From IMG/VR virus record IMGVR_UViG_3300048578_000324, positions 1 through 45,408 of that record: a DNA stretch of 45,408 nucleotides; one strand, written 5' to 3'. Both the position numbers and the translations under genes were made by a program. How positions within the stretch are numbered: position 1 is the first letter of the stretch; every line of letters starts with the position of its first letter. Below are positions 3,781 through 13,300 of this stretch, one piece after another. This DNA is from a virus. Its lineage: Duplodnaviria; Caudoviricetes. The notes beneath the pieces are model-generated. The model was not told the DNA's origin. It saw nothing but the letters and a program-made list of their open reading frames with translations, and did not search any database.

Positions 3781-5222
3781 CAGCCAAACTCCAGGATGAG
3801 GATGCACCCAGGGCGACCAGTGCCCGCTGAGCCTCCTGTACTAGAGATGCCACCACCAGAGCCATAGCCACTGGCGGCGACCGTGTTAGAGGAGCCTCCG
3901 TGCCCAAAGAAGGAGTCAGCACCAAGATACACCGTGCCGGTGTCGTCCCTGGACAAGCGCGGGCGGCCACCTTCGATGCTGGCGATGCCCCCTGTGCCCG
4001 TGGCTGTGCTCGATGGGATTGCCCCGGTCACACCACCATAGGCGGTTATCGTGTCAAGGGTCGTGGCGCCCCCCGTGCTCCCCGCCGCACCGATGGTGGC
4101 GGTGAGGCTGGTAACAGCGGAGACGTCCAGGATGCCGATTTGGAGATTGCCGCTGCTGCCCTGGTTAGCTCCGGCGCCTTGAGCGAGGACTAGCCACTTC
4201 TTGGCACCAGTCGTCTTGGTGACCGTACCGCTGGCGGTGATAAACTGGGCATTGATGAGGGAGCCACCCAGCGCAGAGAGGGCGGAGACAACAAAGGCCG
4301 TGGTAGCGAGCTTGGTCGTGTTGTCCCCGGCGGTGGGGGTAACGCCTCGGGGGGTCTTGGTGAACGTGAAGTCCTGGGTCAGGCGGTTGACCGTGAAGAC
4401 GTTGCCGAGGAGTGTGCCAGCATCGTTGTAGGCGCTGAAGGCGAACGCGTCCCCGGTGTCGGACCGCATGGCCCACCGCACAACGCCATCGGAAAGCCAC
4501 TGGAGCCACTTGTTGTTGCCGGTGGGCCTGTCGATGGAAACCACAGGCGCATTGAGCGTGCCACTGGGTGTGTACAGAACAGGCGCCCCAGCCGTCCCGT
4601 CCGACTTGAAGTCGGTCTTGGGGTAGTAGCTGGAGGGGTCGAACGTGGCAGCGGTCGCCGCGCTCACCGCCGCCGCGCTGGCGCTGTCAGCCGCCTCGCC
4701 TGCCTTAGTGGTGGCGGTGGAGGCGTAACCCTGGGCCGCCGTGACGTAACCCGCCAGGGTGGACTGGACTGAGGCCACGGCATCAGCTGCCGCCGAGCTG
4801 GCAGCGCTCGCCGCCGCCGCCGCAAGGCTAACGCACTGGTTATAGTAGTTGGCCATCTCGTCCAGGTAGGTCAGGACATTGTCACCGATGGCCTTGACCT
4901 CGTCGGTGTCGTCGACCTGTTCCTGAACGATATGCAGGAGACCGCTGAAGGCTCGGTTGAGCGAGCGAGCCCCGAGCGGGCCATCCGCAAACACGACCAG
5001 CGGGGTGCTCTTGGGGGTCTGCCTGTAGAGCTTCACCACCTTGCCGCTGGCGGGCGTCGTGGGCAGCTTGATGGAGGCGGAAGTCAGCCACACGAGGTCT
5101 CCCTGAGGCACAGCCACCCCATCCACGGTCACGTAGACGTAGGCCGGGGACAGGTAGGTGAAACTCAGGGAGAACGTGTCGGTGGTGCCATCCGCGACGT
5201 AGGTATTGCGCGAATAGGCCAT
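3780..5222 (-). CDS. Tail fibre (gp17-like)
   Basis: T7 gp17-type N-terminus (YVADGTTDTFSLSFTYL..VYVTVDG), Ala-rich stalk, DNTTKLATTAFV fibre motif, Gly-rich C-terminus. Confidence 0.92.
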   Translation of the reverse strand: MAYSRNTYVADGTTDTFSLSFTYLSPAYVYVTVDGVAVPQGDLVWLTSASIKLPTTPASGKVVKLYRQTPKSTPLVVFADGPLGARSLNRAFSGLLHIVQEQVDDTDEVKAIGDNVLTYLDEMANYYNQCVSLAAAAASAASSAAADAVASVQSTLAGYVTAAQGYASTATTKAGEAADSASAAAVSAATAATFDPSSYYPKTDFKSDGTAGAPVLYTPSGTLNAPVVSIDRPTGNNKWLQWLSDGVVRWAMRSDTGDAFAFSAYNDAGTLLGNVFTVNRLTQDFTFTKTPRGVTPTAGDNTTKLATTAFVVSALSALGGSLINAQFITASGTVTKTTGAKKWLVLAQGAGANQGSSGNLQIGILDVSAVTSLTATIGAAGSTGGATTLDTITAYGGVTGAIPSSTATGTGGIASIEGGRPRLSRDDTGTVYLGADSFFGHGGSSNTVAASGYGSGGGISSTGGSAGTGRPGCILILEFG

Positions 5223-5230
5223 TGAAGTCC

Positions 5231-8200
5231 TTACTGCGACAGACCGAAGGCCTGCGCGATGCCTTGGATCGTGCTCAGGCCGGCCTTAGCCTGCCCCTGC
5301 CCCGCCCCGGCCTTGTTGGCCTCGTAGGCGGACTTGGATGCCATCAGCTTCTTTTGCACCGCCTCCAGCACCGCAGGGTCCTTCATCAGGCGCTCCATGG
5401 CGGCGGAGTGGTACTTCGAGGTCAGCTGCTGCATGAGCCACGCCTTGGTCCCCCGGATGGTCGGGGGGCCGTCCTCGGCGTTGCGATAGGTCTCGGACTG
5501 GATGAGGTCAGCCGCCGCCTTCTTCAGAGGCTTCTGGCCATCCGGGTAGCCGGACCAGCGGGACAGCGTCTCGTAGGCGTTGGCACCATCCTGCATGGTA
5601 ACGTCCCGCAGGTCCGCGCCGCCCTTCAGCGGGCTGGGCGGGCTGGCGAGGGCCACATTGGCGTCCATGGCCATCCGAGCTGCTTCGTCCTCGACAATGC
5701 CGTGCTGGGGGTGGGCCATCAGGCTGTTGCCGGCCGTGATGGGATCGCCCCAGGCGTCGATGCGGGAGGGAAGCGTGGAGCTGGCGATGGTGCTGGCCGC
5801 GAAGCTGGTGACGAAGTCGTGGGCCTCGCGGAGGTACTGGTCGCCATTGATCTGCCGCATCGTCGCATTGAGCGGGATCAGGCTGGCCGCCATTCGGGCC
5901 ACCCACCGCTCGCCGTCCCGCCTCGGATCGCTCATCGCGTCGAGGAAGTCGGAGAGGCCGCGCAGGTAGCTCTTATCCTTGGCCAGGGCCACCGTGTACA
6001 TCATGATGGCACCGACCGCCTTGGTCAGGCCTGCTTGGTCGACCTCACCCAGCTCGGGCTTGGACTTCAGCGCCTGCACCAGCGTGGCGGTCAGGATCAT
6101 CGGCGCCGAGACAGGGTCCAGGCGGTTGAGATTGACCCACGTGTCGGTGGCCGGCAGGCGGACATGACCCGGCTTGTTCCCCGCGTCGGCGAAGGCCTTG
6201 GCGGCTTGGGGGTTCTCTGGGGCAAGCCCCGTTATGTTGCCCTGAGCCGCCCAGTAGGCCGCGAGGCCGACCAGAGAGGTCGCCAGAGCCGCCTCACCCA
6301 TCGCCTGGGCCTGGGCCGTCTCGCCATGCAGCCCGAACAGCTCGTCACGGAACTGCTTCTGCACGAGATTGAGGCCGGGTGTCAGGCGGATGTTGTAGCG
6401 CAGCGCGTTGATGGGGGTCCGCAGGAACGGAACCACTAGCTTCATGGCCGGCATCTTGTTCAGAGTGAGCGCCATGTTGCGGCCGGTGATGCCCGTCCAG
6501 TCGAAGGTGCCCTCCCCCTGCTCGATGAGGGGCTGGGAGAAAGTGGCCATCTCGGCCTCGCGCTTGGCGACAGGGTCGATCAGAGCCCCGGCCTCGTCAA
6601 AGGCCTCCTCGACGCGACGGTTCACGAAGGACGCAAGGTCCTTGCCCTTGAGCCCCAGCCCTTGGCCCTCCACGGTGGCCCGGCCGATGATGTTCGACCG
6701 CGCTATCGTGCCCTTGAACAGCTCGTCGGCTGCACCCAAGGCTCGCGTGTTGTAGCCAAGCAGCTTGCCGCCGGCCACAAGCCCATTGAAGAGCACGTCC
6801 TTGGTGTTCGCCATGGGACGGAACGGCATCTGGTCGATCACCCGGCCGACATTCAGGGATGCGGACGAGTGGGGGTCGATGATGCTTTCGCCCTTGATGA
6901 ACGCCCGCACCGGCCCGGTGTTGGCGAGGCCCTTGCCGTCCAGGCGCGTCAGCATCGACAGGATGCTCTTCGCCCCCGTGAACAGCTCGGCGCCAAGCTG
7001 GTAGCTCTGTGCGAGAGCGACCTGCCGGGTGGCGGACATCTCGTGGACCCCCTTGACGCCCACCGCCTTGAGGCCTGACCCAATCAGCGCCCCCAGGGCC
7101 TTCACCGGGCCTCCCCGGATCGGCAGCATGAGGGTATTGGCCACCATGTTGATGGCATGGGTCGTGGCCGTCATGACGCTGTTCATCAAGACGTAGTGGG
7201 CGCCGTCGATGGCGTTCCGCGCGAAGCTCGCCGGTACCACCGCTTGGCGGATGCCATCGGGCCGGCCCTGGGTGTTCAGGATGGCGTCCACGAGGGAGTC
7301 GTCATCCATACCCAGGCTGGCGGCAGACTTGGTGTTGCCCAGGTTGACCTTCTCGAAGAGGTCGCCCCGCCATGCCCGGTTCATCCGGCCGCCGAAGGCC
7401 CTGATCTCCGAGATGGGGTCCCACAGGGCGTTGAACGCCACCGTGTGCTTGCGCAGGGCCTCCAGCGCCGCGTCCCGCGTCCCGTACTCCCCGTAGGCGC
7501 CCATCTTGATGCGATTGGCGAGGGTGTACATGTCGCGGGCAACCGTCATGGCGACCTTGAAGGCGGCCAGCGTCTGGGCCTCCAGGGTCTTCGCCGTGCT
7601 GGCGGCCTTGCCGAGGCCCATCATGAAGCCGTCCGTGTCGAGCCCGAACGCCTCGGAGAAGCGGGTGATCTCGGCGAGTGTCTTGGCGTCGGACTTCGGG
7701 GCCTTCGCGGGAGCACTGTTGGTGTCCGCTGCGACGACCTCGGACAGGAGGTCCTGGAGCTGCTTGGGCTCATCGACAACCTTCTGCCACGGGAAGTTCG
7801 GCTTACCGATGCGCTCGCCCGCCGCCAGCGCCTCGTCAAAGGAGCCGTGAGCCTCGACGGCCTTGGCGTCCCTGGAGGCCTGGGAGGCGAGCTTGGGAGC
7901 TACATCACGCGGACGTACATCGGAGGCAGGGGCATCGGGCACTCCTGCGCGGGCATTCCCTTCGCCTGCCACGCCAGCAGGGCCTCGCCCTCGAACATCG
8001 CCAGCTCCAGGGGTTCCAGCCGCCGCAGCATCGGCACCGGCACGGGGGGCTTCCGCCGAGGGAGAGATACTGTCACGTACCCCACGCTGCGCCGACCCTC
8101 CGGCCGCAGCTCCATCAGGTCCGCCACCGCCACTCGGGCCGCTTCCAGTCGGCGCTCGTCGCTCACCAATCGGTACATTGTCCTGAACTCCTAAAGTCTG

Positions 8201-9748
8201 GCCGCGAAGATCGACCGTTTCGCTGGGCTTGATGTTGTCCTGCCCCCACGCATCAATCGGCGGCGGGGGCTCATTGGCGTTGGCCGCAACGGGTGGCGCC
8301 TCCTTGCCGACCATGCCACTGTCGGTGACATTGACGCGGGCTTCGGACGGGCCGGCACCGGGACGGAACGTGTTGTCGTTGCCGGGTCTCGGCGTCTGGA
8401 CCACGCCTCGGCTCTTGTCCAAGGCATTGAGCCCTTCCTGCCCCGTGGTGACCCCGATGTCGGAGTTGCCGAGGTAGGTGCTGTCGGCGCCATATGCCCC
8501 ACCGCCCTGACGGAACCGGCCGCCGCCCTGCTGAAGGCCGGGGATGTCTCGGTTGTCGTTCGACGGAAGGGTGCGGCGCGGATCGCCCGGCAGGAACTGC
8601 TCGCCCTGCGCGGCCTGGGGGCTCAGCTCGGGGGCCTGCCCCGACGCGGCGTTGTCGTTGGCGCTCCGAACCAGCTTGCCGTTGTCGTTAGTGGCGGCGG
8701 GCGGCTGCGTGTAGCTGCCCTCCTCCACCTTCACCTCATAGGGGGTGACGGCCCGCTTCTGGTACTTCTCGAACGCCGTGGCCGCCTCGGCAAGGTCTTC
8801 GGCCGCCCCATCCACGTCGCCCTTGTCGAGCTTGACCTTGCCGCGTACGAACAGGCCAAGGAACTTCGACAGGGCCGCGTCCAGGGTGATCGCCTCAAGG
8901 GCGCCCATGGAGCGCTTCCACGCGATGGTGTCGTTCGGGTCGTTCGACAGCATGTTGGCCAGGGGGCCGCGCAGGGCGGGTATCTGGTTCACATGGGCGA
9001 GGAGCCGGTTGTTGTCCTCGTTGAAGAAGGCAGCCTGGACGGTGCCAGCCTTGAGGAACCGGGCGGCGGCCTTGGCGGTCGAGCCGAAGGTCTCCCCGGC
9101 GCCCTTCATCTTCCCGAGATAGCCGAGGGCCATCCAGCCGGCAGTGAACTGAGAGGCGCCGATGGCGAGCGATGCGCCACCCTTCTCCAGGTCCTCCTGC
9201 CAGCGGATGGTAGCCTCGTTCCGCTTCTCCCAGCGCTTCGTCAGGTCCGTGCCGAGCGCCGCGTCAACGGGCTGGAGACCGAAGCGCCCCAGCTCCCGGC
9301 CGGCGGCCAGGACACCCGCCCCGACAGCCTTGGTGCCACGCCAGAGGTCTTCCTTGACGCGGTCAACCGGGTCGGACGGAAGCTCACCGGGCGCCAGAAC
9401 GTCCTGGCCTCGGGCGGTCGCCAGCTGGTCAGCCGCAAAGCTGGGGTCCGCCTGCGCCGACTGGTCCCATTCCTGGGCCGCCGACTGAAGCATCTCCGCG
9501 AAGCCTGGGCGAACCAGATCAGCATCGGAGGGGGCCTGCGCTTCGGGTGCGGCGGGTTGGTTCTGGATGCCAGAGAACGGCTCCGGCTCGCCGACCTGGG
9601 CCGGCACGGAAGAGTCAGCTTGCGGTGCCGGGGAGGTGGCCGTCGACTGTCCGCCCAGGAACTCGATGGTGTCTAGGGCGTCGGTCAGGGTGTCACCCTT
9701 GCCGGTCGTTCGGCTGATCTGCTCGGTGAGAGACTTCGGGTCGGCCAT
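5231..9748 (-). CDS. Large internal virion/ejection protein (gp16-like)
   Basis: 1505 aa immediately before the fibre; VPFLRTPIN motif typical of this class. Confidence 0.8.
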   Translation of the reverse strand: MADPKSLTEQISRTTGKGDTLTDALDTIEFLGGQSTATSPAPQADSSVPAQVGEPEPFSGIQNQPAAPEAQAPSDADLVRPGFAEMLQSAAQEWDQSAQADPSFAADQLATARGQDVLAPGELPSDPVDRVKEDLWRGTKAVGAGVLAAGRELGRFGLQPVDAALGTDLTKRWEKRNEATIRWQEDLEKGGASLAIGASQFTAGWMALGYLGKMKGAGETFGSTAKAAARFLKAGTVQAAFFNEDNNRLLAHVNQIPALRGPLANMLSNDPNDTIAWKRSMGALEAITLDAALSKFLGLFVRGKVKLDKGDVDGAAEDLAEAATAFEKYQKRAVTPYEVKVEEGSYTQPPAATNDNGKLVRSANDNAASGQAPELSPQAAQGEQFLPGDPRRTLPSNDNRDIPGLQQGGGRFRQGGGAYGADSTYLGNSDIGVTTGQEGLNALDKSRGVVQTPRPGNDNTFRPGAGPSEARVNVTDSGMVGKEAPPVAANANEPPPPIDAWGQDNIKPSETVDLRGQTLGVQDNVPIGERRAPTGSGPSGGGGPDGAAAGGSAQRGVRDSISPSAEAPRAGADAAAAGTPGAGDVRGRGPAGVAGEGNARAGVPDAPASDVRPRDVAPKLASQASRDAKAVEAHGSFDEALAAGERIGKPNFPWQKVVDEPKQLQDLLSEVVAADTNSAPAKAPKSDAKTLAEITRFSEAFGLDTDGFMMGLGKAASTAKTLEAQTLAAFKVAMTVARDMYTLANRIKMGAYGEYGTRDAALEALRKHTVAFNALWDPISEIRAFGGRMNRAWRGDLFEKVNLGNTKSAASLGMDDDSLVDAILNTQGRPDGIRQAVVPASFARNAIDGAHYVLMNSVMTATTHAINMVANTLMLPIRGGPVKALGALIGSGLKAVGVKGVHEMSATRQVALAQSYQLGAELFTGAKSILSMLTRLDGKGLANTGPVRAFIKGESIIDPHSSASLNVGRVIDQMPFRPMANTKDVLFNGLVAGGKLLGYNTRALGAADELFKGTIARSNIIGRATVEGQGLGLKGKDLASFVNRRVEEAFDEAGALIDPVAKREAEMATFSQPLIEQGEGTFDWTGITGRNMALTLNKMPAMKLVVPFLRTPINALRYNIRLTPGLNLVQKQFRDELFGLHGETAQAQAMGEAALATSLVGLAAYWAAQGNITGLAPENPQAAKAFADAGNKPGHVRLPATDTWVNLNRLDPVSAPMILTATLVQALKSKPELGEVDQAGLTKAVGAIMMYTVALAKDKSYLRGLSDFLDAMSDPRRDGERWVARMAASLIPLNATMRQINGDQYLREAHDFVTSFAASTIASSTLPSRIDAWGDPITAGNSLMAHPQHGIVEDEAARMAMDANVALASPPSPLKGGADLRDVTMQDGANAYETLSRWSGYPDGQKPLKKAAADLIQSETYRNAEDGPPTIRGTKAWLMQQLTSKYHSAAMERLMKDPAVLEAVQKKLMASKSAYEANKAGAGQGQAKAGLSTIQGIAQAFGLSQ
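7900..8178 (-). CDS. Candidate nested gene (92 aa) in the +1 frame of the gp16-like gene
   Basis: TTTAGGAGTTCAGGACAATG RBS; G/C third-position bias moves to this frame while the host frame uses rare A/T-ending codons. Confidence 0.6.
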   Translation of the reverse strand: MYRLVSDERRLEAARVAVADLMELRPEGRRSVGYVTVSLPRRKPPVPVPMLRRLEPLELAMFEGEALLAWQAKGMPAQECPMPLPPMYVRVM

Positions 9749-9766
9749 CTAGGCTGCCTCCTGAGG

Positions 9767-10312
9767 TCAGGCCTCGGAGCCGCCCGCCTTGGCGGAGCCG
9801 GACACCGTTGCCGGAAGGTCGTACTGTTCGGGGGTGGGCAGCGGCACGTTGGCCGGCCAGCGGATGCCCGCGACCTTGTCGAGTGGGATGTCCATGACGC
9901 AGACGGAGTCGGACTGGTTGGCACCGAGCGCCTTGACCATCCCGGTCTTGGGGTCGTAGCCGACGATCTGGAAGACGTGGCCGCCGACCAACTTGCCGGC
10001 CGAGTTGTAGCGCTTCTTCACGCCGATGGCGCCGAGCGCCGGCTTGGTCAGCTTGACGCCGTACTTGAGGTAGTCCAGCGCCCAGAGCGTGCCCTTGCGG
10101 TTCGCATCCAGCTGGGCCGGGAGGCCGGCGGAGATGAGCCACGCGTCCATCGCGGCGGCGCACCACGCGGTCTCGTCGTCCTTGACCTCGGGGTGGCCGG
10201 CGATGCGGAAGATATCGAGGACGCGTTGGTTGTGCTTGTGGCCGGCGATCTCGTGGATGCCGAGGTCACCATAGGCGACCACGGTCCAGATGGGGCGGAT
10301 GTCCTGCTTCAT
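9767..10312 (-). CDS. TIGR02594-like cysteine peptidase (NlpC/P60-CHAP-like), putative endolysin
   Basis: DDETAWCAA (Cys), GHVFQIVG (His), LGANQSDSV; ATGA overlap with the upstream stop. Confidence 0.8.
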   Translation of the reverse strand: MKQDIRPIWTVVAYGDLGIHEIAGHKHNQRVLDIFRIAGHPEVKDDETAWCAAAMDAWLISAGLPAQLDANRKGTLWALDYLKYGVKLTKPALGAIGVKKRYNSAGKLVGGHVFQIVGYDPKTGMVKALGANQSDSVCVMDIPLDKVAGIRWPANVPLPTPEQYDLPATVSGSAKAGGSEA

Positions 10313-13300
10313 GTTGCTTTCTTGTCGCGGCTGCCGGTCATCTCGGCGTGCCAATTCTCATACGAGAGGGGGAACCACAGGCCGAAGCGAGCGGCGTTGT
10401 CGTGGACCCAGCGGACCACTTCAGGCGGAGCCTTGGCCAACGAGTTGCCGTTCCAGCCCAGGTCCACAGCCTCGCCGTGGTTGTGCTTGGAGCGGCCGGG
10501 CGGTGCGACCCACTTGCCGCTCTTGTCGCTGGCGGCGTACAGCTCGGCCTGACGCCGGCTATCGCGGAAGCCCGAGTAGACGCCAAGCCCGTCCTTGATG
10601 GCCGGAGGGGCGTCATTGATCAGGGCGGCCACGCGGTTGGTCAGCTCCGGGTCCATCCTGGCGATGGCCTCACGCGGGTGGTGCGTCCTTGCGGCAAGGA
10701 AGTCCACCGCGTTGCCACCCGTGAAGGTGACGTACGGGCCGGGCCGGATCGGGGTGCCCATGGAGACGAACTCAATGGGCTTCTGCGAGTACGGCTGCGT
10801 GTTGGTGCCATCGGCGTTGTCGCGCTCGGCGGCAATGTCGAAGCGACCCTCGGGGGCGCCAACAAAGGCTCCACCCGTGTCATGCACCACGGCCGGCACG
10901 TTGCGGAGCGTGACGGGTTGCCCGCCGATGTTGGCGGTGATCTCGCGGATGACATAGCGCCGGCCGTAATAGGTCGGGCTGCCGGCGAGGGTCACGTAGG
11001 GGCTGCGCCCTTCAACGTAGTCCTGGATTGTCGACACGCGGGTGTTGCCATCCGGGCCTGGGCGGGATGCCGCGTAACCTCCCTCCATCCTGTCTCCACC
11101 CTTCATGGGCGAGTAGGCGGAGGCGATGCCGGTTAGCGGCCGCCCCTGCGGTTGAGACACCTGCCCGGCTGTCAGGGCCGCCTGGGCAGCTTCCTGGCCT
11201 AACAGCTCGGGCAGGTTATCCCGCAACTGGGTAGCCACCTCATCCGGGGTGAGCATCGCCAGCTGCATCCCATCGGCAAGGTCGAACGCGGGCGCCACAT
11301 CGCTCATGACCACCGGGGCCTGAGTATCTGCCGCGCTCTGCTTGCCGGGGACCGGTTGTGCGGAAGGGGTTGGTTGGCCGGGAGGCGGAGCCATGCGGTC
11401 CTTCTCCATGGCGTTGCGCTGCTTGCGCCACAGCCAGATGGAGAACGAGTTGGTGTCGGCACCGCGCTGCCGCGCCACGTCCTCCATCATCCGCTTCTCG
11501 GCGGGCGTCATGCCCTGCATCCACGTGTTGAAGGCCTCCTTCTCCTGCGGGTCGGTGATCGGCAGGTTGGGCGGCGTGGATGGCTTGACGGGCGGCGTAG
11601 GGACGCCCTGAGGCTGCGGCGGAAGGCGCTCCCCAGGCCCAGCCGGGCCGTCGGTAACCACGGGCATATCAGCCCTGGTTTCCGGGTTGGCCTTCTGAAG
11701 CTCGGTAGTCGGAGCAACGATGTTGGACGGCGGGTTGGCTCCCTCACCGGGGGCGGCGGGAACATGCCCCGGCTGCCCCACCGAGGGGTTGGCCACAATG
11801 CTCTTGATCCACAGGGTGCCGATGTCCGAGATGGCCTTCTGGCGCTCCAGGATGGTGGCCTTGGGGTTGTCCATCATCCACTGGAGAACCTGCCGCCGGA
11901 AGCCTCCGACCGCCTTCAGGCCCTCGTTGGTCAGGCCTGCCCCCTCCGGACCGAAGATGATCTCTCCGTTCTGCGGGGCGCGGCTGGTGCGGGACTTGAT
12001 GGTGTTCATCACGTCCACGAAGGCAGGGTCTTGCTGGACCTTGGCGTACTCGTCCTGCTTCTGCTTGACGTTGTCGCCCAGCGTCATCAGGCTCTTGATG
12101 TCGTCGCCATTGCGGATGATGCCGAGGCCGATGCCCTGCTTGATCGCGTCCATGGCGTCGGCGCCGCCGAGTAGCTGCTGCTCGATCTCGAACAGGCCCT
12201 TGGGGTCAGACGCCTCCTTGGAGTCGCGGACCTCCTTCAGGGTCTTGCGGTCGCGGATCATGTCCATCTGGGCGGACGGGTCCAGCTCGCCGAGGCGGCC
12301 GAACTTCTTGGGGTCCAGAGTGGCGTCGGGGTCGGCGAAGAGCTGGCGCAGGAGGTCGGTCTTTAGGCCACGGGCCTCCTCGATCCGCTTCTTGTCGGCC
12401 AGCTCGCGGAGCCGCAGCTGCTTGGTGTAGGCCGTGTTCTCGATGGTCTTCTTGGCCTGCTCGTAGGCCGCCCCGCCCTCCACCGTGTCGCGCCACTTGA
12501 CCTTGGTGCCGGGCTTGACCGTGTCGAAGAAGCCCAACACCTTCTCCGCCATTGCCGGGTCCTCCTGGCTGATGGCGAACTCGGTGACCTTCTTCAGCAG
12601 CCCCTCGTCAAACTTCTGGAGCTGCGCAGGGCTGGCGCCGAACGCGGCGAAGTTGGCCCGGCTGCCGTTCCATTTGGCGTTCTGCTCGTCCCAGTTGACG
12701 CGGGAGGCGTCCGTGGCGGCGGTCAGCGCGAGGTTGTTCTGGGAGGCCGCTGTCCCGATCGAGGCGTCCTGCGACTTCTCAACGATGGAGTCGTGGGCAT
12801 CCTTCATGTGCCGCGTCTGGACGATGTCGCGGAAGCGGTTCAGCTCCGGCAGGAAGGTGCGGAGGACGTATGGGGCATCCTTGCCGTACTTCTCCTGCAC
12901 CGCCGTCAGCTTCTCCTGGGCGTACTGCGTCCAGAAGGCGTTGAAGCTGTCGGGGTTCGGGTCGTCCTTCTTGTCCCACGTCAGGTAGCGCTGCTCGAAG
13001 TCCAGGGGCAGCTCGGACCCCATCGACGTTCCTGCCGCCCCGAGGTAGCCCCGGTTGTAGCGGTAGGGGTCGGCGAAGATCGGGATCGCGCCCTGCTCCT
13101 GGGCGGCCTTGTAGCCGTCCTTGTTGCCCAGGGCGAAGTCCATCTGGCCCTGAAGCTCCTGCTTCTCGCGCTCCTCCGACTGCCGCTTGGCGATCACGCC
13201 GGAGATGGACTGGTCGAGGTCGCCGAGAGAGCGGGCGAGGTCATGGAGTGGCGAAGGGGCCGGATCGGCGGGTCGGACGTAGGAGGCGACCGGCGCCGCG

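Follow-up and report, generated by a model that had tools for sequence, protein, structure and literature searches.

The gp16-like ejection protein gene of a T7-like phage contains, wholly within its coding sequence and offset by +1, a 92-codon ORF preceded by its own ribosome-binding site, and across this ORF the gp16 frame loses the G/C third-position bias of the genome. Such an ORF had been proposed in a first-pass annotation of the same DNA, and its boundaries, start codon and Shine-Dalgarno (SD) site were verified (Table 1). Judging from these features of the sequence, the +1 frame is very probably translated as a second protein. The fuller reading, in which a translated accessory gene occupies a tolerant linker of gp16 and its product is a fast-changing conflict factor, is one that we hold with moderate confidence.

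The window, by which we mean the whole stretch of DNA analysed (45,408 nt; 45.4 kb, 66% GC), is T7-like: besides the usual late block it carries genes for an integrase and a single-subunit RNA polymerase. Since its proteins are on record within a 227-kb contig, the phage probably exists as a prophage. An alphaproteobacterial host is suggested by its closest gp16-like relatives, which reside in genomes of Methylobacterium, Beijerinckiaceae, Nitrobacter and Nitratireductor. The gene containing the nested ORF was identified as gp16-like by homology, its tblastn matches carrying the annotation internal virion protein D, and by its position: a tail fibre gene follows it, and on the other side it is flanked by a gp15-like gene and a TIGR02594 gene. 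Its linker varies from 58 to 316 aa across full-length relatives. Upstream of the nested ORF, codons 354-492 of the linker (window about 8690-8280) contain five 'ANDN'-like peptide motifs, and similar ones occur in the linkers of the related loci L175, L007, L183 and L187. The TIGR02594/phrog_1259 gene stands alone at window 10354-9767, between the gp15-like and gp16-like genes, and overlaps the end of gp15 if a TTG start is used. The gp15-like protein of L198 carries the TIGR02594 domain as a C-terminal fusion; that of the window ends in a VanY/M15 peptidase domain, not TIGR02594. Elsewhere in the window, a small predicted membrane protein is encoded at 2126-1902, directly ahead of the terminase large subunit, and L007, L179 and L175 have short hydrophobic ORFs in the corresponding position.

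Table 1. Features of the gp16-like gene in the window and nested ORFs in the linkers of related gp16-like genes.
Feature	Window position, or frame and length	Strand	Basis or remark
gp16-like internal virion (ejection) protein gene, 1505 aa	5231..9748	-	phrog_6651, E 5.6e-33; tblastn; synteny
Hypervariable gp16 linker, about codons 311-627	7868..8818	-	alignments; between N-terminal conserved block and C-terminal body
Low host-frame GC3 segment, codons 510-617	7898..8221	-	maximum likelihood, likelihood ratio (LR) 98.5; nested ORF plus initiation region
Nested 92-codon ORF, offset +1 to gp16 frame	7900..8178	-	ATG at 8178, TAG at 7900-7902
SD site AGGAG, 9 nt ahead of nested ATG	8188..8192	-	weakly structured stretch
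L007 nested ORF in gp16 linker	+1, 104 aa		SD present
L179 nested ORF in gp16 linker	+1, 111 aa		SD present
L176 two tandem nested ORFs in gp16 linker	+1, 64 and 62 aa		SD present
L016 nested ORF in gp16 linker	+2, 62 aa		SD present
L198 nested ORF in gp16 linker	+1, 157 aa		SD present
L261 nested ORF in gp16 linker	+1, 62 aa		SD present
L243 nested ORF in gp16 linker, weaker case	+1, 112 aa		SD present

Inside the overlap, GC at codon positions 1, 2 and 3 of the gp16 frame is 0.86, 0.76 and 0.46, vs. 0.66, 0.48 and 0.88 outside; in the nested frame it is 0.76, 0.46 and 0.87. From its amino acids, the gp16 frame would be expected to have 78.9 G/C-ending codons among the 93 of the overlap and has 43 (z -10.4). 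The adjoining upstream disordered linker (gp16 codons 340-500) has 137 of 161, with 139 expected (z -0.5), and because third-position GC (GC3) is normal there, disorder alone does not explain the drop. The lowest 93-codon GC3 window of the gene begins at codon 524, which is the nested start, and in 12 other genes no 93-codon window has a GC3 below 0.66. The fitted low-GC3 segment covers codons 510-617 and the nested ORF codons 524-616, so that two observations of the first-pass annotation, a loss of G/C bias in the gp16 frame and its return directly after the nested TAG, hold on calculation. The correlation of codon usage (RSCU) with that of the genome is 0.51 for the nested frame and -0.11 for the gp16 frame; the control linker gives 0.60.

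That the +1 frame is open is in itself uninformative (P = 0.86 when the synonymous codons of the linker are redrawn from genome usage), and the high GC3 of the nested frame occupies the same column as the first codon position of the G/A/P/R linker. The independent signal is therefore the loss of GC3 from the gp16 frame. Within the overlap, gp16 contains 23% G and 22% A and no L, H, C or W, unlike the raw shadow frame of ordinary genes (R 18, L 8.5 and H 8.4%). Composition is thus constrained in both frames, and it is the nested gene that now sets the third positions. The nested frame had been described as mostly G/C-ending, which is correct, and as ordinary in composition, which is only roughly so, as R, L and P stand at 12 each and M at 8, with no N, H or I. 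It had also been called the selected frame; it does carry the codon signal of the genome, but the gp16 frame is constrained as well and the small protein changes fast.

Pairing of the nested SD site with the anti-SD is -6.8 kcal/mol, and 16 other genes of the window range from -4.8 to -11.0. Only 4% of windows in the gp16 gene fold as weakly as the nested start region; similarly weak structure is present at L176 and absent at L179 and L016. No sigma-70 consensus promoter was detected in window 4800-10500, a relaxed promoter scan upstream of the nested ORFs gave weak matches only (in three of eight regions), and no repeated phage RNA polymerase promoter motif could be defined. Because no separate promoter was found, the nested gene would be expected to be co-transcribed late with gp16. 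Internal initiation at the nested SD, by ribosomes on the late mRNA, would yield a 10.5-kDa protein, and gp16 would pass through the same bases as a sequence-tolerant G/A/P/R tether, needing only an open frame of small residues.

The 92-aa protein has a single Cys (residue 80) and a net charge of +3, and neither a lipobox nor a hydrophobic or membrane segment (maximum 19-residue hydropathy 0.55). Its AlphaFold model (pLDDT 44) is too poor for a fold search. No family match was obtained in Pfam, PHROGs, NCBIfam or PADLOC, and no homolog in a set of 5.8 billion clusters, among 1.84 billion representatives or in phage and plasmid records; recognition in the ESM Atlas was under the bar, and scans of genomes and metagenomes, run with the single protein or with a two-row alignment, gave no matches. 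In viral contigs the sole match was a 97% relative, so the homology search proposed in the first-pass annotation led to no homolog or family beyond this near relative. In agreement with the expectation that gene callers would miss the gene, a collection of 15 billion proteins contains gp16 without the 92-aa product. Two further candidates were set aside: a motif likeness of the 92-aa protein to the nested proteins of L007, L179 and L176 was not significant against shuffles, and a 345-aa antisense ORF at 7157-8194, which lacks a family match, was treated as a shadow frame.

Both near relatives of the window locus, L009 (also L001) and a contig of run X2, carry the nested ORF, and an empty close allele was not found. 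In L001/L009 (97% nucleotide identity to the window) the SD, ATG and stop are all kept, and four of the six L009 differences within the nested ORF are synonymous for the nested frame yet non-synonymous in gp16. With one divergent indel block excluded, the changes in this relative fall on gp16 codon positions 1, 2 and 3 as 4/1/1 inside the overlap and 14/8/80 outside. X2 (about 89% identity) retains the nested ATG and TAG, and a 6-nt deletion and a 73-nt divergent block of unchanged length preserve both frames; among the differences listed, X2 alone has at least three synonymous vs. at least nine non-synonymous codons, in both frames. The gp16 frame stays open in both relatives, the 6-nt deletion being in frame.

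Pooled over the differences listed, changes fall at the gp16 third position in 7 of 27 cases inside the overlap vs. 99 of 126 outside (p 3e-7). Nested position 3 takes 13 of the 27 (p 0.08). In the test of frame-specific selection that the first-pass annotation had suggested, 7 of 20 changes were synonymous in the nested frame, against an expected fraction of 0.29 (p 0.34), which gives no support for purifying selection on its amino acids; the gp16 frame within the overlap, with 4 of 20 synonymous, is also at a neutral level. Divergence of the 92-aa protein is no slower than that of the gp16 sequence on either side.

Gp16-like ORFs gathered by terminase- and gp16-based scans were screened for nested frames with a codon advantage (45, 67 and 18 gp16-like rows, some of them duplicates), and further nested ORFs were found in the linkers of seven loci (Table 1). 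As a null set, 271 long codon-biased ORFs (201,612 codons) supplied 1628 nested candidates. An SD combined with a codon advantage over 10 was seen in only three, all within gp16-like genes and one of them the window ORF; one ORF outside gp16 scored 26.7 but lacked an SD. The limits of the low-GC3 segment coincide with the nested ORF in six of six loci (LR 43-98), and 15 of 16 control genes gave LR 6-19. The exception, L191, has a GC3 dip of LR 45 with only a weak +1 ORF; this dip (L191:5487-5724) also contains a short A-rich tandem duplication and could be a nascent gene or a regulatory site. LR values of 22-29, as high as that of L243, were obtained for L250, L262, L273 and L276, which have no convincing nested ORF. 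In L261, a dip over gp16 codons 483-527 begins 44 codons ahead of the nested start, possibly marking a promoter or a second small ORF.

The nested proteins of L007 and L179 are homologous (45%, E 4e-13), with nested and gp16 frames both about 41% identical between the two loci; no homology was found for the other pairs of nested proteins. AlphaFold models for L007 and L179 (pLDDT 47) were too poor for fold searches. A membrane helix is predicted in the nested proteins of L016, L198, L243 and L261, and the proteins from L007, L179 and the first of the L176 ORFs are strongly basic. In a tree of 34 rows, from which distant, partial and duplicate rows were left out, a nested ORF with SD is present in 8 of 30 gp16-like clade members and at least five changes are required. 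A single clade of carriers was rejected (p-AU 5e-40) in a test on 16 rows from which the window protein was left out as a long branch. Since related phages hold unrelated small frames at one spot, the linker is likely a reusable slot for accessory genes missed by annotation. A bolder proposal, which we find doubtful, is that the linker is a recurrent cradle with at least four to five independent origins of small genes, often membrane-bound, that took over the linker codons and left gp16 to keep only an open G/A-rich frame. If so, temperate T7-like phages would have a concealed site, proof against recombination, in which to keep exclusion or counter-defence factors suited to their own injection machinery.

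As to origin, we somewhat favor overprinting: the +1 frame of the G/A/P linker, open by default, would have become a gene that then took control of codon choice. Overprinting fits the orphan status of the protein, the default openness of the frame and the nested ORFs of L016, L198 and L007, which run into conserved gp16 sequence before stopping. A substantial but lesser possibility is capture, in which a small phage gene, already complete with its RBS, entered the linker out of frame and gp16 was left open by luck. Capture fits the genome-like codon use of this orphan frame, which by the codon-usage rule would make it the older of the two (PMC8227390), although the same source notes that old de novo genes can converge on genome codon use (PMC8227390). 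In addition, 93-codon windows of ordinary genes leave the host frame open at +1 in 23% of cases (151/666) and at +2 in 8% (51/666), a bias that fits the eight of nine cases at +1, and the linker also takes in-frame domains. Against capture stand the lack of stand-alone homologs for the nested proteins of the window, L007 and L198 (those of the latter two sought in phage genomes), the extension of three nested ORFs into conserved sequence, and the G/A-rich composition of gp16 in the overlap, so unlike a raw shadow frame.

The product of the nested gene may act inside the infected or lysogenic cell, in exclusion of competing phages or in counter-defence, rather than as a required part of ejection. 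We propose this role tentatively, by analogy and because the slot occupants turn over rapidly and tend to be basic or to carry a predicted membrane helix. SieA of P22 is a prophage-expressed inner-membrane protein that acts on ejection proteins in superinfection exclusion (PMC10883804). It resembles the present case as a small protein of a temperate podophage, and several slot occupants are small predicted membrane proteins. SieA differs in being a separate gene, and the 92-aa protein shows no similarity to it, no membrane helix and no detected host-type promoter; being soluble, the 92-aa protein more likely has a cytoplasmic target than a SieA-type block. Phage polyvalent proteins are described as large injected proteins that collect variable conflict domains (PMC5512222). 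The ART-PolyVal-like domain in the gp16-like linker of L271 recalls them, but polyvalent cargoes are in frame and injected, whereas the nested product is separate and would not accompany gp16. For phage Fc02, exclusion activity has been reported for overlapping genes (PMC9936078).

Alternatively, the nested protein could be a dedicated partner of gp16, a capsid-loading chaperone or self-inhibitor made in fixed ratio from one mRNA, which we consider unlikely. The nested position would ensure co-expression and co-inheritance, L007 and L179 kept one nested protein while gp16 fell to 44% identity, and SieA is a precedent for a small protein directed at ejection proteins (PMC10883804). Still, 22 of 30 clade members show no nested gene, the occupants are mostly unrelated and of different types, and the 92-aa protein diverges no more slowly than the gp16 sequence beside it. 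The chaperone offered in the first-pass annotation is unlikely, at least as an obligatory one, because most relatives lack any nested gene; its suggestion of an immunity partner to an ejected cargo also fared poorly, as L271, the sole relative with an enzyme-like linker cargo, shows no nested gene.

It is still less likely that the ORF is non-functional, a product of two compensating frameshifts or of foreign DNA in which the old frame has not decayed. The chance-level openness of the +1 frame, the neutral level of nested-frame substitutions, the missing homologs and GC3 dips of the L191 type without a clear ORF are all compatible with this. Yet an SD and start codon lie at the 5' edge of the dip and a stop at its 3' edge, and the chance of such an SD-start lying no more than six codons from any chosen point is 0.007 (11 in 20,163 codons). 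Start and stop are moreover kept at about 89% identity, the pattern recurs in independent lineages, and the predicted membrane helices of four occupants are not old linker sequence. A lysis accessory (spanin-like, holin regulator or membrane disruptor), suggested by Rz1 within Rz, is very improbable despite the late position, the predicted membrane helices of four occupants and a weak Rz-like match of the L198 protein (E 0.12), because the phage has its own holin-like and spanin genes, with an amidase too, and the 92-aa protein has no membrane helix or lipobox. The cluster in question (window 19207-18598) comprises a holin-like gene (78 aa), an i-spanin-like gene (79 aa) and an overlapping o-spanin gene (phrog_1275, E 8.6e-13), with the spanins at 18967-18598, and sits between the scaffold and major capsid genes, unlike the lysis genes of T7, which are located after the tail fibre.

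To our knowledge, most nested genes described in tailed phages are spanin genes, together with one insertion of a homing endonuclease. Rz1 within Rz of lambda and 18.7 within 18.5 of T7 are embedded spanin genes, and Rz1 is a conserved lipoprotein that binds the product of its host gene. As in these pairs, a small gene with its own start lies wholly within a larger late gene on the same strand at +1. The window ORF differs in that its product has no lipobox and is not a lipoprotein, its host gene encodes an internal virion protein rather than an i-spanin, it lacks family-wide conservation, and the spanins of this phage are encoded separately.

In the ShiLan domain an HNH endonuclease is inserted out of frame in a phage methylase, and the host frame remains open and, by prediction, translates the insert as a loop (PMC11855218). 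The window ORF shares the out-of-frame position within a phage gene and the open host frame. ShiLan is, however, a homing endonuclease with homologs, whereas the 92-aa protein has no His or Asn for an HNH motif and matches no nuclease family, nor any other in Pfam, PHROG or NCBIfam; the gp16 slot also holds unrelated occupants in different lineages. Overprinted viral genes, as reviewed elsewhere, have a narrow distribution, prefer +1, show disorder in one partner and often encode accessory conflict proteins (PMC8227390). The window ORF has the same restricted distribution, narrower than that of its host gene, the +1 frame and a disorder that relieves constraint. It departs from them in its inverted codon signal, the nested frame being the more genome-like of the two rather than the less, and in recurrence at one site, in several lineages, within a structural gene of tailed phages.

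No gene nested in an ejection-protein gene was found in the literature searched, which covered few subscription papers; in a keyword search of a review of ejection proteins, the words 'overlap' and 'linker' do not occur (PMC8954989). What appears new is that hidden genes unrelated to one another occupy a single structural gene in several lineages and invert its codon signal. A GC3 dip in the linker offers a simple screen for small phage proteins that annotation omits, and some candidates from this screen are in prophages of cultured hosts.

The site also forms a natural series of empty, in-frame-filled and out-of-frame-filled linkers, which could serve as a test of gene birth by overprinting vs. 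capture. Among in-frame fillings, that of L271, the sister of L261, is a DUF3990/ART-PolyVal-like domain below cut-offs. Inserts judged by eye to be GNAT-like in L270 and ART-like in L195 had no Pfam match. In L184/L193 and L186, the gp16-like ORFs begin directly after the linker, and their N-terminal block may have split off at this site. Finally, in L198 (L198:4779-11452, G001) the gp16-like gene comes ahead of the gp15-like gene, with an invertase and an ATPase as flanking genes, and the 13.6 kb retrieved contain no capsid or tail genes; the region is possibly a satellite-like island that carries ejection genes.
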